NCBI GenBank assembly: GCA_964441445.1
Contig: CAYTYO010000002.1
Location: 1-48,382 of the forward strand
Direction: 5' to 3'
DNA length: 48,382 nt
Origin: an uncultured Gammaproteobacteria bacterium
GTDB lineage: Bacteria > Patescibacteriota > Microgenomatia > CAZETR01 > Amesbacteraceae
The position numbers and the translations under genes are program-made. The notes under the pieces are model-generated. The model was not told the origin of the DNA, did not search any database, and was given only the letters and a program-made list of their open reading frames with translations. Position 1 is the first letter of the stretch; every line of letters begins with the position of its first letter. Below, one piece after another: positions 78-42,601 of the stretch.

Positions 78-1049
78 TTAGTCTTTAACTGGGTGAAATT
101 TATGGTGTGTTTCTTCAGCAAACTTATCTGAAGCATGTACATACCTTGTTGTCGTATCAAGCGATTCGTGACCTAAAAGCACCTGAATAGCTGCCGGATT
201 TGCACCGGACTCGGCTAAGTAAGTCGCAAATCCATGTCGCAAACTGTGTGCTGATGTGGGCACATTTATTCTTAATTTCTCCCGATAATACTTAATTTTT
301 GCCTGTAAGTAGTTTGTGGATATCCTTCGGGTTATTTTCCCCCCGTTCAAGCCTCTTTGCGGCACAAACATTGCCGGAGCGGCATCTTGCCGCATAGCTA
401 AATATTTCTCCAGCCAGCGTACCGCCCGCTCAGTCAGATATACAAACCGTTCCTTTTTACCTTTACCGCGTATAAACAGTCTTCCGGAACCATCCAGCTG
501 GGTTTTATTCAAAGATACCAGTTCCGAGATACGCATTCCTGTCGACAAAAGCACTTCCAACATTACCCGGTTTCGCAGTCCGATAATTTCATCTTTCTCC
601 AAACGTTGCGGAGACTCCACTAACTTAACCAATTCTGAAAGTTCAGCGACTTGCTTAGTTTTTTTGGGTGCCTTAACCATCTTGATCGCGTCAGGAGGTA
701 ACGGCACCTTCTGGTCTATATCGATAAGATACCTTAAATATGTCCGAATGGACGACAAACACCTATTTACTGAGCCTGGCTCGAGGCTATGAGGCGCTGT
801 AAGGCGCGTAAACGGCTGTTTCCGGTCTCTGCTGACCAACCATGCCTTAAACCGGTTAAACATCTGCTTATTAAGGTCCTTGTAGTGCAGTTTTTCATCA
901 TCCAGGAAATTTATAAGATACACCAAATCCCGTTCATAATTGTATAAAGTTTCTTCGGCATAATTTTGGGTCTTCAGATATAGAAGGAAGTCGTCAAAGT
1001 AGGGTAAAGCCGGTTTCTTATGTGGGGCAGGTGTACTTGTAGGCATCAC
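78..1049 (-). CDS. Tyrosine-type site-specific recombinase (XerC/XerD-like integrase)
   Basis: 323-aa ORF. N-terminal SAM-like core-binding region (FLLYLKTQNYAEETLYNYERDL). C-terminal catalytic signature TGMRISEL ... HSLRHGFATYLAESG ... LLGHESLDTTTRYVH (R, HxxR, H, Y). Confidence 0.9.
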   Translation of the reverse strand: MMPTSTPAPHKKPALPYFDDFLLYLKTQNYAEETLYNYERDLVYLINFLDDEKLHYKDLNKQMFNRFKAWLVSRDRKQPFTRLTAPHSLEPGSVNRCLSSIRTYLRYLIDIDQKVPLPPDAIKMVKAPKKTKQVAELSELVKLVESPQRLEKDEIIGLRNRVMLEVLLSTGMRISELVSLNKTQLDGSGRLFIRGKGKKERFVYLTERAVRWLEKYLAMRQDAAPAMFVPQRGLNGGKITRRISTNYLQAKIKYYREKLRINVPTSAHSLRHGFATYLAESGANPAAIQVLLGHESLDTTTRYVHASDKFAEETHHKFHPVKD

Positions 1050-8610: not shown

Positions 8611-8695
8611 GGGCAAGTGGCGGAATGGCAGACGCGCAGGTCTCAAAAACCTGTGGGCCTTAAAGCCCGTGTGGGTTCGACTCCCACCTTGCCCA
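8611..8695 (+). tRNA. tRNA-Leu (anticodon CAA), class II with long variable arm
   Basis: Acceptor GGGCAAG pairs with CTTGCCC, discriminator A. Anticodon stem CAGGT/ACCTG with loop CTCAAAA. Variable arm TGGGCCTTAAAGCCCGT. T arm GTGGGTTCGACTCCCAC. No encoded CCA. Confidence 0.93.
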
Positions 8696-8754
8696 CAAAT
8701 TTTTTCTTTGCATTTTTTGCAATGTGACACTTCAAATGCTTACAATATATTGAC

Positions 8755-20094: not shown

Positions 20095-21129
20095 TCAAAC
20101 CCCCACCTTGAATTCCACCACATCCCCTTCCTGCATTATATATTCCCGGCCTTCCTGTCTCACCTTCCCCAACTCTCTCGCCCTTGCCCACCCACCCACT
20201 TTCACAAACTCATCAAAAGCTACAGTCTCGGCCTTGATGAAGTTCTTTTCAAAATCAGTGTGGATTACCCCGGCCGCCGTCGAAGCCGTCATTCCTTTCT
20301 TAATGGTCCACGCCCTTACTTCAATTTCCCCGGCCGTCAGAAAGGACTGCAACCCCAAAATCTCATAGCCCTTTCTGATCAGTTTAGCCAACCCGCTCTC
20401 GCTTACCCCTGCCTGGATCAGGTACTCTATCTGGTCCGCTTCGGGTAATTCTGAAAGTTCAGCTTCCATCTTCGCGCATATCCTCACTTCGTCCCCGTCA
20501 CCGGTTAACTTATCTTCGTCGACGTTAAGCACCACGATTACCGGCTTGGAGGTCAGAAGGCTCATCTGCTTTACTGCATTTGTATCCTCATCATTAAAAA
20601 CCATCTCTGACACTTTCTTTCCGGCTTGAAGCCCGGCTTTAACCTTTTCCGCCAGCGCCAATCTGGTCTTATCCTTCCCGGAAAGAATTTTTTCCACAGT
20701 TTCCAAATCTGCTAGGATTAATTCCGTTTCTAATACTTCTCTGTCTGATTTTGGATCAAACGACCCCGCCCTGATCACGTTATCATCACCAAAATCACGT
20801 AGCACCATTGCGATGGCATCGACCTCACGGATGTGGGACAAAAATTTATTTCCCAATCCTTCACCAGAACTCGCCCCTTTCACCAGTCCCGCAATATCTA
20901 CGAACTTTACAGTCGCATGCACTTCAGGGGGTAAGTGCTCCATCTTTTCAGCCATCTTTACTACCTCCGCTAACATTGCCAACCGTTCATCCGGAACTCC
21001 CACCACTCCCACATTCGGCTCAATTGTCGCAAATGGGTAATTCGCGGCCAGTGCCGCCTGCTTCTTAAGCAAGGCGTTAAATAACGTTGATTTACCGACG
21101 TTCGGCAATCCCACTATCCCTATCTCCAT
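20095..21129 (-). CDS. ychF: Redox-regulated ATPase YchF (Obg-family)
   Basis: MEIGIVGLPNVGKSTLFNAL, NYPFATIEPN, FVDIAGLVKGAS, C-terminal TGS-like IHTDFEKNFIKAE. ATG at 21129 is preferred over TTG at 21153. Confidence 0.93.
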   Translation of the reverse strand: MEIGIVGLPNVGKSTLFNALLKKQAALAANYPFATIEPNVGVVGVPDERLAMLAEVVKMAEKMEHLPPEVHATVKFVDIAGLVKGASSGEGLGNKFLSHIREVDAIAMVLRDFGDDNVIRAGSFDPKSDREVLETELILADLETVEKILSGKDKTRLALAEKVKAGLQAGKKVSEMVFNDEDTNAVKQMSLLTSKPVIVVLNVDEDKLTGDGDEVRICAKMEAELSELPEADQIEYLIQAGVSESGLAKLIRKGYEILGLQSFLTAGEIEVRAWTIKKGMTASTAAGVIHTDFEKNFIKAETVAFDEFVKVGGWARARELGKVRQEGREYIMQEGDVVEFKVGV

Positions 21130-21238
21130 AAAAACATCCCAACTTTTGGTCAAAAAGGGTTAAATGCCCCCCTAACGCAACTTGGCCTCCTTCATATACC
21201 GTTATTTTAACAATAAATCCTCATTAATTGTCCTTAGT

Positions 21239-21715
21239 TCACTTAGCACTCCACAAATTTGGCAATTTATTACTGTACAGGGCGGTTCCAAACCACGCCC
21301 AGTTTTGGATATAGTAGTTTTTCGCATCTTCCCAATAACTGGATCCTGTATCAAAATCCTCATAAAACTTAGCTAAAATCTTTTCCTTGTATATCAAATC
21401 TGCAGTCTCGGGAGAAGTTACAGAAAAATTAACCATGCTCATCGCGTACCCCAATACCGATTCATATTTCTCCCACGGCTCACCACTGTGCGTATATCCA
21501 ACTAGAACTTTTCCGTCATTTATCCACCTGTCCAGCAAAAACCTGCCGCTAAGATCCAATAACTCCTTCGCCCTCTGCTCAGAATTCCATTTATAATCCA
21601 AGGCCAAACGCCACATCGTCCTCACGGCATCATACGAGTAATCCGTCGACTCCAAACCCGGCTCTTCGGCACGACTAAATACTCCGTTTTCATCCATCTG
21701 TAACATGAGCATCAC
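21239..21715 (-). pseudogene. Glycoside hydrolase family 8-like C-terminal fragment (5'-truncated remnant)
   Basis: The 158-aa ORF carries only GH8 C-terminal-type blocks (YSYDAVRTMWRLALDYKW; DAKNYYIQNWAWFGTAL, compare BcsZ SYDAIRVY.W and DAYYNY). An in-frame TGA lies directly upstream (21716-21718). No N-terminal catalytic half is present. Confidence 0.45.
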
Positions 21716-21760
21716 TCATTGTGTAACCTGAGTAACACGATTGAAGCTGATAAGTCAGAT

Positions 21761-23971
21761 CTATTTTCGCCAGTGTGCAGAAATATACTCGTTAGCCTCG
21801 CGCACATCCAACTCATGGGAGGCGTTTCCGGACCTGACATGAAACTCTGCCTTATAACCATCCGTGAGGTAAACCGGGATCACAAACTTTGGTACATCTA
21901 TAGTCAATACTGTTTTCCCTTTCACCTGAACAAATTCTGTGTTCAAATGTGGTCTTATCTCCTTACCTAAGTAGTTAACCATCACGTTGGTAAATGCCAG
22001 CTCATACTTATCGGGGTTTCTCTCGACCAAAGTCTCTAAATCCTTTTCGATGCCCACAATCTCTCCCTGGTCACTCACTCCTATTAATAATCTTCCCCCT
22101 TCCGAATTGGCAAAAGCCGCCACAGTCCTGGCTATTACTTTTTCCAGTACCTTATCTACCTGTTCAGTCCTGTAATTCCATCGCATGGATGCTTTAAACT
22201 CCAACCTGCTACTTTCTCCGCCAGCAATTTGCTCCTCTAATAGTTCTTCTGCGGATTTAGTCGCCGAAATAGGTAAATGCTCAATAAATTCATTTATGGT
22301 CCTGGCAATTTCCGACCTCCTGTATTGCAAAAACTGCCGGAAGTTGTCCACTTCCCACAATGCCCGGTCCTCAGGTATCAATTGCGATTTGAGGGTCTCC
22401 TGTCCCCGCTTCGAGATTATTTCCTTTTCAAAATATACACTCGGGGGGGTATCGGAAATCTTTCTATTGGTACTTCCGCCTAAGAAAACTAAGTTTGCAA
22501 TGTCGTTTATCTCCTTCTGGTCATATTTTGCCTTTGACAACAAGGCTTTCGGAAAAATGTGGTGGGCTTGAATTTTATGGCTCATTCCCAAATGAGAACT
22601 GGATAAAGCCAAACCTGTAAACCAATCTTTTGCACCCCTGGATTTAAAAACGGTATACAGCATGGAGAAAAATGGACTATTGGTAGTCTTGTTTACCAGA
22701 TCATCTGGTGTCACCTCAAACTTCTTAACGTGAGCCTCCAATATGTTAAGAAGATCATTAACGTCCGCATTCCTGAATAGTGACGCTAAGTCTGCATTTA
22801 GAATTGATTCAGAAGACCCCATACCATAGTGCCCGCGCATGTGTGCCAGATATAACCATCTTAAAAGCAGCCTCTCTTCGTCCAGGCTCAAATGGTAATT
22901 TTTAAGATGTGCAAATACCGCGATAGGAATAACCAAACTGGAAGCTGCCAAATCTTCCAGCTTCTCAATCGCAGCATTAGTTCGGACAAAATTAACCGCG
23001 AACCTCATCCCTTGTTTAGCTTTCTCCCACGCTTCCTGAAGCTGAACTACTTTATACTTTCCGATGGTATTAAATTTCGCTTGTTTAGTAGCAAAGACTG
23101 TCAGTGTTCTTACCGCCAACCAATCTGCTACATATTCACCGTCTTCTCCAAACTCTGCAGCAAATTCATCCAACTGGTTCATAAAGCCTTTCCACTTGCT
23201 GGATATTTGCGCGATAGCCAAATCAGATCCCCGCAGCTTTATGCCCAGAGAATTAACCCGGACAAAAATCTCGGTTACTTCCTCATATGACATGCTCTTT
23301 TCTAAAATTTGCATCACATACATATATTCGGTAATTTTTCTTACTCTCTGCAATCTGTCGGCATACTTATCCCACCGCGCATCATCAGAATTTATGCCTA
23401 ATGGTTTTAGCAAATCCCTATCCGGCATCTTAAAAATATCTGATACCGATACCCATGAAGGATTATTTTGTAGTGCTCGATAGCCAACCACAAAGGTCCT
23501 CTTCCTCAGTTCCTCCTGAATATCTATCTGGTTTGACTCACCGTTCTCATTTTCGTCCCCATCAGACATGGAATCGTTTTCATCGACTTCCATCACTTCA
23601 ATCGGTGGCCCGTCGGGGTGATCTAGGTTAAACATAATCTCAATCGGCCGCTTTCGCCTCCGTACCGTGATCGGCTGGCCTGTTAAAACTGCTGATAATG
23701 AAGTAATCCTTTGTTGCCCGTCCAGAAGCAACAACCTGCTTGATGAACTTGGAGTAGAGGTCGGTCTTGAAGCCAATTCTTTTGTCTCTACATCTTCGTC
23801 GGTCTCCCAAACCAATATGGTTCCGGAAGGGTAACCACGATACAATGAGTCCAACAAGTCTCTAACCCTGGTAGCCGGCCACACATATCGTCTTTGCATT
23901 TCCGGTAGTAACAATTCCCCCCTCTGAGTTTTGTCTACCAACTCCCTGACGGAAATATCAGTTTTAGCCAT
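21761..23971 (-). CDS. DUF262 (GmrSD-type ParB-like NTPase) / His-Me finger nuclease / AlbA_2 (Schlafen-type) fusion protein; candidate stand-alone defence nuclease
   Basis: 736 aa. Motifs: LPEMQRRYVW, DGQQR (nt 23708-23722), IFVRVNSLGIKLRGSDL. QAHHIFPKALL...NDIANLVFLGGSTNRKISD lies at nt ~22457-22579. C-terminal GGESSRLEFK...VAAFANSEGGRLLIGVSDQGEIVGIE lies at nt 21764-22222. Confidence 0.88.
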   Translation of the reverse strand: MAKTDISVRELVDKTQRGELLLPEMQRRYVWPATRVRDLLDSLYRGYPSGTILVWETDEDVETKELASRPTSTPSSSSRLLLLDGQQRITSLSAVLTGQPITVRRRKRPIEIMFNLDHPDGPPIEVMEVDENDSMSDGDENENGESNQIDIQEELRKRTFVVGYRALQNNPSWVSVSDIFKMPDRDLLKPLGINSDDARWDKYADRLQRVRKITEYMYVMQILEKSMSYEEVTEIFVRVNSLGIKLRGSDLAIAQISSKWKGFMNQLDEFAAEFGEDGEYVADWLAVRTLTVFATKQAKFNTIGKYKVVQLQEAWEKAKQGMRFAVNFVRTNAAIEKLEDLAASSLVIPIAVFAHLKNYHLSLDEERLLLRWLYLAHMRGHYGMGSSESILNADLASLFRNADVNDLLNILEAHVKKFEVTPDDLVNKTTNSPFFSMLYTVFKSRGAKDWFTGLALSSSHLGMSHKIQAHHIFPKALLSKAKYDQKEINDIANLVFLGGSTNRKISDTPPSVYFEKEIISKRGQETLKSQLIPEDRALWEVDNFRQFLQYRRSEIARTINEFIEHLPISATKSAEELLEEQIAGGESSRLEFKASMRWNYRTEQVDKVLEKVIARTVAAFANSEGGRLLIGVSDQGEIVGIEKDLETLVERNPDKYELAFTNVMVNYLGKEIRPHLNTEFVQVKGKTVLTIDVPKFVIPVYLTDGYKAEFHVRSGNASHELDVREANEYISAHWRK

Positions 23972-24050
23972 TTATAATCGGAATTATATACCCTCTTGAG
24001 GCCAAAAACCGCCAAATCCCAGAGCGCCCTCAACTCCCAAGCCCGCTTGA

Positions 24051-24173
24051 AAGGTTAGCACTATCTATGGAACCTATTTTTCAGACAATCCGCCTGCCAG
24101 AGAAATGGTGTGTGTCAAAGAGCTGCCTCATGGAGCAAAAATCGAAATTAGCGTGATTGCCAAAAAACCCTAA
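24051..24173 (+). pseudogene. RidA/YjgF-family C-terminal remnant (40 codons)
   Basis: The frame opens just after an in-frame TGA at 24048-24050. It reads KVSTIYGTYFSDNPPAREMVCVKELPHGAKIEISVIAKKP*, matching the RidA C-terminal pattern (VY..YF...PAR..V.V..LP....EIE.IA). The first ~85 codons are absent. Confidence 0.55.
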
Positions 24174-24204
24174 ACCACAACATTAACCCCCAACTCAAGT
24201 AAGT

Positions 24205-24720
24205 TCACGAAACCTGACTACTAATCAACTCATTTTTCAGTTTGGTTACATACTCAGTTCTTTCTTCAGGTTTAGACAAAATACTTTTCTTTGCCGAGTT
24301 TTTGTTATATGAATCACCTTCATATCTGGGAAATATATGGTGATGATAATGAAAAGCGTGTTGATTCCCGGCTGGCTCATTATTTTGCCTTGTCGTTATT
24401 CCATCACATCCATAAGCGTTCTTCATAACAATAGACATCTTTTTAACCACTTCAGAAATTCTGTGTCCTACTTCATCAGGTAGCTCATAAATATTCTCAT
24501 AATGTTCATTTGGAACAACTATCACATGCCCTTTTACTGTATCAATCCAAAATGAATTCAAAAACACGCTCACCAAATCATCTTTATAAATTAAATCTGC
24601 CTGTTTTAATAAAGTATCTTCGTTCTCTATTCCACGAACACCTAGGCAAATAGGACATTTATAATTTTCTGGTGCGTGTTTAATAAGAGTTGACTTTCTC
24701 TTTAAATTTATCAAATCCAT
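24205..24720 (-). CDS. HIT-family (histidine triad) nucleotide hydrolase/transferase
   Basis: CPICLGV N-terminal motif, GHVIVVPNEHYENIYEL, histidine triad NQHAFHYHHHIFPRY. Visibly AT-rich. Confidence 0.85.
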   Translation of the reverse strand: MDLINLKRKSTLIKHAPENYKCPICLGVRGIENEDTLLKQADLIYKDDLVSVFLNSFWIDTVKGHVIVVPNEHYENIYELPDEVGHRISEVVKKMSIVMKNAYGCDGITTRQNNEPAGNQHAFHYHHHIFPRYEGDSYNKNSAKKSILSKPEERTEYVTKLKNELISSQVS

Positions 24721-42142: not shown

Positions 42143-42601
42143 TTATTCTGCAACTCTTTTCTGCGCCTCATGAGATCCTTTACGCAGCATTTTTCGCCAC
42201 AACGGCTCTCTCTGCTCTTCCTGCTTTTTCACTTCCTTCTTCTGTTCCTTTTGTTGGGTATCTTTTTTCTGCTCCTGTTGTTTCTTCTGTTCCTTCTCCT
42301 GCCGCACCCTGGCAATCTCCGCATTAATCTTTTCTAAGTTTTGCCGGGTCTGGGACAATGCCTGCTGGCTTTGATCCTGCACCTGTTGCTGTTGTTGTTG
42401 TGACAGCATTTTCTGTTGGGCACTTTCTTGGCCCGCATCCTGTCCGTAATCCCCGGTCAGCTGCCCTTTAGCGTCACCCGCCATAGCCACAACTGTTGTC
42501 CCTACCGCCTTAGCCGCCTGCTTCGCATACTTTTGTGCCCGCCCGGAAATCCCTTCAATACTTTCAAACGAATCCTGATTTCTTGGTCCCAGTACCGCCA
42601 T
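42143..42601 (-). CDS. Hypothetical Gln/Lys/Glu-rich coiled-coil protein
   Basis: 152-aa ORF with a low-complexity QQQQQQ / KEQKK tract. No motif. Confidence 0.55.
   Translation of the reverse strand: MAVLGPRNQDSFESIEGISGRAQKYAKQAAKAVGTTVVAMAGDAKGQLTGDYGQDAGQESAQQKMLSQQQQQQVQDQSQQALSQTRQNLEKINAEIARVRQEKEQKKQQEQKKDTQQKEQKKEVKKQEEQREPLWRKMLRKGSHEAQKRVAE

Follow-up and report, generated by a model that had tools for sequence, protein, structure and literature searches.

A predicted single-chain defence protein with a BrxU-like GmrSD core and a Schlafen-type tail in a probable Patescibacteria genome

Results

A three-module gene

The stretch of contig CAYTYO010000002.1 analysed here, 48,382 nucleotides (nt) long and referred to as the window, contains a minus-strand open reading frame (ORF) with an ATG start that encodes a protein of 736 amino acids (aa). 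A preliminary reading of the letters and the ORF list alone (the sequence-only reading) had proposed that this gene is a stand-alone candidate defence nuclease with three modules: a DUF262 domain of the GmrSD type, a His-Me nuclease finger and a Schlafen-type AlbA_2 domain. The ORF was found exactly where that reading had placed it, and the three modules were borne out by Pfam, PADLOC, phmmer, Foldseek and a BLASTP comparison with the restriction enzyme BrxU (Table 1). The Pfam search that it had proposed recovered GmrSD_N/DUF262 (PF03235; E 8.3e-29, 101.6 bits against a cut-off of 33.2) and SLFN_AlbA_2 (PF04326; E 4.2e-20, 72.9 bits against 25.3) above threshold, with GmrSD_C/DUF1524 (PF07510; E 1.5e-4, 22.1 bits) slightly below its 23-bit cut-off. 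No NCBIfam model matched the 736-aa protein. The motifs on which the sequence-only reading was built also lie as described, with DGQQR at aa 84-88, ESSRLEFK at aa 586-593 and AAFANSEGG at aa 618-626.

The first 573 residues correspond to BrxU

To compare the protein with BrxU (587 aa; PDB 7P9K/7P9M), we took the BrxU gene from Escherichia fergusonii plasmid pEFER, where it is located between brxC and pglX. BLASTP aligned the two proteins end to end (residues 1-573 against 1-586, 21% identity, E 3e-19), placing the RLFDS, DGQQR and DHIYP motifs of BrxU on DLLDS (aa 38-42), DGQQR and HHIFP of our protein. S42 of DLLDS is invariant across the alignments with BrxU and relatives, and DGQQR is invariant in both family alignments. 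In PADLOC, another check that had been suggested, the best family was HEC-05, whose profile is filled almost completely (aa 2-564 against profile positions 22-594 of 600, E 3.4e-56); the HEC-05 candidate is BrxU (bioRxiv 2024.01.29.577857).

An AlphaFold2 model, built from a 116-sequence alignment with a mean predicted local distance difference test score (pLDDT) of 86, gives the same picture. Its nuclease finger consists of strands at 467-471 and 494-498 and a helix at 499-505, the expected beta-beta-alpha order, and the model is all-helical at 229-444, in a linker that is collinear with BrxU residues ~221-470. The top structure in Foldseek was BrxU (7p9k, E 7e-15, 660 aligned columns), and AlbA_2 and Schlafen structures came next, for the tail. 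The His-Me module is therefore backed by HEC-05, by the BrxU alignment, by Foldseek and by the modelled finger, in addition to the weak PF07510 match. The sole segment of the model with pLDDT below 50 is an acidic insert at aa 128-147, which the sequence-only reading had noticed as low-complexity sequence; fused and unfused relatives from Patescibacteria and DPANN archaea share it, whereas BrxU and the rhizobial and haloarchaeal sequences do not have it. Both BrxU and the unfused relatives end after the core helices, those relatives of ~568 aa at ...INEFxxxF/L.

Judged by these alignments and the model, aa 1-573 is a complete BrxU/HEC-05-type GmrSD enzyme. Our protein has DUF262 with DGQQR, the RLFDS-type serine and full-length collinearity, together with a His-Me finger in which HHIFP falls on DHIYP and is followed by N493 and N502, with the caveat that PF07510 is below threshold and the first residue of the motif is histidine. 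BrxU resembles it further in being a single-gene system. It differs in having no Schlafen module, in lying inside a BREX operon where our gene has no defence neighbours, in reading DH rather than HH at the nuclease motif, and in lacking the clade-specific disordered insert. Defence by BrxU is lost with D474A, with H475A and with mutation of DGQQR; the enzyme degrades DNA containing 5-methylcytosine (5mC), 5-hydroxymethylcytosine (5hmC) or glucosylated 5hmC (glc-5hmC) in an ATP-dependent manner, and forms an intertwined dimer thought to open on nucleotide binding (PMC8565348). Mutants of HEC-06 lose defence as those of BrxU do (bioRxiv 2024.01.29.577857). We also considered the class of SspE and of Dnd- or Ssp-coupled nucleases and rejected it, as the window contains no sspABCD or dnd genes and the PADLOC match to SspE was weak and confined to the N-terminal part (aa 7-98, E 1.2e-5).

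The C-terminal tail is a Schlafen domain with a conserved motif

Against PDB sequences, phmmer matched the tail to SLFN12, SLFN8, SLFN14 and a RecG-related AlbA_2 protein. Foldseek matched it to DIP2311, to the DNA-binding/tRNase (transfer RNA-cleaving) domain of SAMD9, and to SLFN14, 11, 13, 5 and 12. D634 lies at what we take to be the place of D248 in SLFN13, going by the SLFN12 alignment and the residue numbering. The ESSRLEFK motif, read as E586-x4-E591-x-K593, agrees with the Ex4(E/D)xK pattern that defines prokaryotic Schlafen nucleases (PMC13056530) and fits the E-D-K triad that holds a metal ion in CbCash (PMC13462974). With E-x4-E-x-K and the additional aspartate in place, the Schlafen active site is predicted to be intact.

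Two long relatives carry a different domain at this position. In P0266, which is 46% identical to our protein, and in P0341, Pfam places HEPN_Swt1 exactly where the Schlafen module sits (aa 607-735 and aa 547-661, respectively), and the toxin domains of the HEPN superfamily are mostly RNases (PMC3710099). This points to a C-terminal slot in which RNase effectors can be exchanged. Taken with the conservation of the active-site set in fused relatives, the HEPN swap favours a catalytic tail over a mere binding domain. Four other long proteins (P0277, P0350, P0374 and P0411) have C-terminal extensions of at least 140 aa that have no Pfam match.

The nearest genuine relatives of the tail outside GmrSD proteins are P0121, P0122, P0126 and P0131, small proteins 41-46% identical to it in which two to three predicted N-terminal membrane helices precede the Schlafen domain, a layout of which we saw no discussion. 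P0125, P0128 and P0132 were tried as a stand-alone AlbA_2 family and rejected: they start inside the core helix ...ALWEIxNYxxFLxxRR... and, judged by that start, stem from fused genes, either as fragments or as truncated calls.

Table 1. Modules and motifs of the gene, in window coordinates.
Feature	Position (nt)	Strand	Basis
Whole gene: DUF262 / His-Me / Schlafen (AlbA_2) single chain, 736 aa + stop	21761..23971	-	ORF list, Pfam, PADLOC HEC-05, AlphaFold2 model
DUF262 / GmrSD_N (ParB/Srx-like NTPase) module, aa 9-252	23216..23947	-	PF03235, BrxU N-domain alignment
DGQQR, aa 84-88, NTP gamma-phosphate / hydrolysis motif of GmrSD enzymes	23708..23722	-	Alignments; role from PMC8565348, bioRxiv 2024.01.29.577857
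Acidic disordered insert within DUF262 module, aa 128-147	23531..23590	-	pLDDT <50; relatives' alignments
Helical middle/linker domain, aa 253-463, between NTPase and nuclease modules as in BrxU	22583..23215	-	Model; BrxU collinearity
His-Me (beta-beta-alpha-metal) finger in DUF1524 position, aa 464-511	22439..22582	-	PF07510, BrxU alignment, model
HHIFP, aa 470-474 within the His-Me finger, which also holds N493 and N502	22550-22564	-	BrxU alignment
C-terminal helices of BrxU-like core, aa 512-573	22253..22438	-	Alignments of relatives
Schlafen / AlbA_2 module, aa 586-721	21809..22216	-	PF04326, phmmer, Foldseek
Schlafen catalytic motif E586-x4-E591-x-K593	22193-22216	-	Ex4(E/D)xK definition, PMC13056530
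D634, third acidic Schlafen residue	22070-22072	-	SLFN12 alignment
NTP, nucleoside triphosphate.

The fused form is patchily distributed and its motifs are conserved

A survey of the architecture, as the sequence-only reading had recommended, found the fused form scattered over distant phyla of both bacteria and archaea. A word-index search for homologues with the His-Me and Schlafen query listed proteins only up to ~1.8 times the query length and was unfit as a census; we therefore relied on an exhaustive search of representatives and on a genome scan. The exhaustive profile search, over 1.84 billion cluster representatives, gave 1,672 matches below 1e-30. Among the best 150 of these, 56 reach a length of 640 aa or more, and in this set plus our protein PF04326 was found in 40 of 57 and PF03235 in 56 of 57. 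The scan used one narrow pattern around HHIFP on a set in which each species is represented by a single genome, and picked out 80 loci; in 39 of them DGQQR, HHIFP and Ex4(E/D)xK occur in order within a single open frame of ~700-770 aa. The 39 genomes include Chloroflexia, Saccharibacteria, Woesearchaeota, Planctomycetia and Nitrospinales, as well as cultured Sphingomonadales, Bacteroidales, Halobacteria and SAR116. Three-module genes were also found by tblastn in three plasmid records (99% coverage, 27-30% identical), namely Sinorhizobium meliloti pSymA, Haloquadratum walsbyi PL100 and the halophilic archaeon DL31.

Close fused relatives from metagenomes number only four others (P0002-P0005, 56-78% identical), whereas unfused proteins of 565-570 aa from Patescibacteria and DPANN archaea number in the hundreds and are 60-65% identical to the core. 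The unfused core is likewise 60-65% identical between Patescibacteria and the DPANN archaea Pacearchaeota, Nanoarchaeota and Woesearchaeota (loci L024, L031 and L053); this is unusually high for a comparison across domains and points to a recent exchange between these groups of episymbionts.

Conservation was counted in an alignment of 54 long relatives. DGQQR is kept in 52-53 of the 54, H471 in 43 and N493 in all. Of the Schlafen residues, E586 is kept in 50, E591 in 43 (with aspartate in two more), K593 in 42 and D634 in 41. Of the relatives that bear AlbA_2, practically every one retains the Schlafen residues, and the conservation extends to the His-Me and DGQQR columns. With the motif columns of all three modules conserved, the three sites look to be under selection.

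Genomic context

The neighbours of the gene in the window encode YchF, S6, SSB, a CtpA-like protease, a HIT protein and two HAD hydrolases, and the remainder of the 48 kb consists of housekeeping genes. Among the 51 window ORFs of at least 100 aa, a set that covers the plausible genes, Pfam and PADLOC detected no methyltransferase, no BREX, Dnd or Ssp component and no known defence gene, which upholds the sequence-only reading's claim that the protein has no partner there. Acting alone is normal for the family, as BrxU and EcoSlfn7, a protein of Escherichia coli, are both single-gene systems, and the call of a stand-alone candidate defence nuclease is supported. Association with defence islands, which the window copy does not show, holds for the class as a statistical tendency and need not apply to each of its genes.

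Relatives, unlike the window copy, often lie in defence neighbourhoods. Unfused relatives are found directly after hsdM-hsdS-hsdR, and others between a helix-turn-helix gene and an N6/N4 methylase with a ResIII helicase, beside a serine recombinase. Among fused copies, P0003 adjoins NERD and helicase genes, and the rhizobial copy lies near a RES toxin pair, a recombinase, a type I restriction-modification (R-M) system and an Abi gene. The DL31 copy (L015, 5857-7719) has a second, divergent DUF262 gene immediately upstream and a DUF1156 gene downstream. On one metagenome contig (L018, 2922-6951) an insertion sequence with a DDE transposase interrupts the fused gene, leaving a 393-aa DUF262 part on one side and a 316-aa part with the His-Me and Schlafen modules on the other; this locus lies between SNF2/DUF1016 genes and DUF1156 and DUF499 genes, the latter two of which we read as an Hma-like system. 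At least 14 of the 39 fused loci match a crude panel of ten defence proteins. The closest relatives of our gene (72-78% identical) have neighbourhoods unrelated to that of the window, which indicates that the gene is mobile. Composition within the window shows no break, in an analysis that did not include a search for flanking repeats, and a recent insertion there is neither shown nor excluded.

Around the gene, the interval 21100-24300 yielded no match to a sigma-70-like promoter, against 6.0 +/- 2.8 expected from shuffles, and its single terminator-like site falls within coding sequence. A 158-aa ORF with a GTG start (21239-21715, minus strand) starts a mere 45 nt downstream; neither Pfam nor PADLOC matches it, and it may be a gene fragment. 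Elsewhere, a 152-aa ORF (42143-42601, minus strand) has no Pfam match and a weak PADLOC match to Cmr5 (E 2.3e-4), which is probably due to chance given that no other Cas-like gene was seen in the window. A tyrosine recombinase (78-1049, minus strand; Phage_integrase E 1.3e-33) lies at the left edge of the window, and a tRNA-Leu(CAA) gene (8611-8696, plus strand) ~7.5 kb from it. GC skew is negative in every 1-kb bin of the window (-0.08 to -0.56) and the long ORFs are mostly on the minus strand, consistent with a single replichore and co-oriented genes.

Discussion

Proteins of this composition have been described before. The sequence-only reading had placed a Schlafen-type tail outside the known GmrSD-type proteins, a claim contradicted by two publications and by our own surveys. 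In a classification of His-Me finger proteins, AlbA_2 is named among the usual C-terminal additions to GmrSD proteins (group 3, DUF1524), where it was taken from sequence analysis to be a DNA/RNA-binding domain (Jablonska et al. 2017). Those proteins have exactly the DUF262, DUF1524 and AlbA_2 domains of ours; they were catalogued only, and their AlbA_2 domain was not read as an RNase. More recently, 5,930 prokaryotic Schlafens (pSlfn) were sorted into 55 architectures, of which DUF262-Slfn accounts for 1.8% (Perez Taboada et al. 2026, PMC13056530). Its member EcoSlfn7, from E. coli UC4224, reduced T7 plating 538-fold and acts on a broad range of phages (PMC13056530). Our protein shares the features of this class, with PF04326 above threshold, the Ex4(E/D)xK motif and a DUF262 fusion in one polypeptide encoded by a single gene, although the comparison with EcoSlfn7 is one of Pfam composition. 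With the gene of a Nitrosomonas relative as query, blastn gave no match in E. coli genomes. The Pfam i-E-value limit in that study was 1e-4 (PMC13056530); such a limit would miss a His-Me finger like that of our protein, so that three modules may lie behind the name DUF262-Slfn. The architecture, then, already has a name and a defence phenotype, which largely answers to a ground that the sequence-only reading had itself given for refutation, and our protein is a new, divergent member of it, one representative of which has been tested phenotypically.

We lean, with modest confidence, towards the view that the protein is a DUF262-Slfn enzyme that acts against phages alone and as a single chain, in which a BrxU-like NTP-dependent DNase core is joined to a Schlafen tRNase. 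By analogy with BrxU, the core would be an NTP-binding and NTP-hydrolysing enzyme that breaks down incoming DNA with modified cytosines. By analogy with RorSlfn5, CbCash and SLFN11/13, the Schlafen module would act as a metal-dependent endoribonuclease that cuts tRNA loops. The core may sense foreign DNA, and an NTP-driven change in its conformation or oligomeric state may license both nucleases, the DNase attacking the phage genome directly and tRNA cleavage stopping translation as a back-up. That a nucleotide-driven change in the core gates the tail is speculation, made plausible by the opening of the BrxU dimer and by the alternation of CbCash Schlafen domains between closed and open states (PMC13462974). 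RorSlfn5 and CbCash (Cash) have the same Schlafen catalytic triad as our protein and cleave the anticodon or T loops of tRNA once a fused sensor is triggered. Their sensors, an Ig-like domain (phage tail chaperone) and Csx15 (cA4), respectively, differ from the GmrSD-type nuclease found here, and their Schlafen catalytic residues lie near the N-terminus, at 15-24, whereas our Schlafen domain is C-terminal.

Several points weigh against this reading. Type IV restriction requires phages with modified DNA, which this host is not known to meet. In the window the genes around this copy are housekeeping ones, and no known defence gene was detected in the 48 kb. The evidence from EcoSlfn7 is a phenotype only (PMC13056530), and its homology to our protein may not extend beyond shared Pfam domains. 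The published model, proposed for pSlfn fusions in general, takes the fused domain purely as a sensor, with no second effector (PMC13056530). If this holds here, the BrxU-like part would only sense, through DNA or NTP binding, and the Schlafen tRNase would be the sole effector in an abortive or translation-arresting response. The nuclease motif offers some grounds for such a reading: its Pfam score is below the curated cut-off, its first residue is histidine and not the Asp/Glu mutated in BrxU and HEC-06, and H471 is replaced in ~11 of the 54 long relatives. Counter to this, N493 is invariant, H471, P474 and N502 are retained in most fused relatives, and HHIFP is the majority form of the family, not a decayed one. 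Moreover, the unfused sisters (60-65% identical) have the His-Me nuclease as their only one and sit in R-M operons, so that a working DNase can be presumed for the clade. We consider a core reduced to sensing unlikely, although it deserves more weight than the other alternatives. Somewhat less probable still is the converse, a plain type IV restriction enzyme in which AlbA_2 is a non-catalytic nucleic-acid-binding accessory for recognition or regulation. This would accord with the description of AlbA_2 on GmrSD proteins simply as DNA/RNA-binding (Jablonska et al. 2017), with the existence of mammalian Schlafens that have no catalytic residues (PMC13462974), and with the SAMD9 AlbA_2 domain, first solved as a DNA-binding domain (7ksp). 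Yet E586, E591, K593 and D634 are all present, and practically every fused relative conserves them; cleavage of tRNA is the activity of prokaryotic Slfn domains that have this motif (PMC13056530, PMC13462974); and what replaces the module in sister proteins is a HEPN domain, from a superfamily whose toxins are mostly RNases (PMC3710099).

A role outside defence, in the housekeeping DNA or RNA metabolism of a reduced genome, seems to us very improbable. It could be argued from the flanking YchF, S6, SSB, HIT and HAD genes, and from the finding that ~30% of pSlfn genes are not beside known defence genes (PMC13056530). But the gene moves, its closest relatives being in quite different neighbourhoods; the fused form is patchy over distant phyla and both domains of life; the family occurs in R-M and Hma contexts; and the nearest characterised homologues are all defence proteins. 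The fusion itself might be suspected of being an assembly or frameshift artefact that joins two genes, as the unfused 568-aa relatives are far commoner in the clade. With the junction in frame and the linker conserved, the independent occurrences of the same fusion, full-length in the four other metagenomic proteins, in the three plasmid genes and in one open frame in 39 species genomes, effectively refute that explanation.

How the fusion arose is less clear. In N-terminal distances the core of P0005 is 71% identical to unfused proteins against 62% to P0001-P0004, nearer to the unfused proteins, so that the two forms intermingle. Between fused lineages the Schlafen domains share only 35-43% identity, and they are about as distant from the small AlbA_2 proteins. 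These comparisons would fit either several gains of the tail or one gain followed by its repeated loss, and do not decide between them.

The main gain is one of annotation, in that a probable Patescibacteria gene receives a well-supported defence assignment. In addition, the DUF262-Slfn class is documented to contain a complete, apparently active His-Me nuclease, as predicted from its motif and model, which the published classification does not list. The exchange of HEPN for Schlafen at one position provides a natural experiment on the dual-nuclease idea. If that idea is right, one chain would link a type IV restriction enzyme to an effector that shuts down translation, and a DNA-modification sensor would be added to the triggers known for Schlafen tRNases, whose family is also found in human antiviral immunity. 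More tentatively, and with rather more doubt than confidence, we suggest that GmrSD/BrxU scaffolds may carry an interchangeable C-terminal RNase cassette, Schlafen here and HEPN in sister proteins, that couples recognition of modified DNA to both DNA restriction and tRNA cleavage, with an NTP-driven dimer-to-monomer switch of the core as the allosteric trigger of the RNase. If so, restriction and abortive infection would be united in one chain, a compact all-in-one defence for what is probably a reduced Patescibacteria genome.

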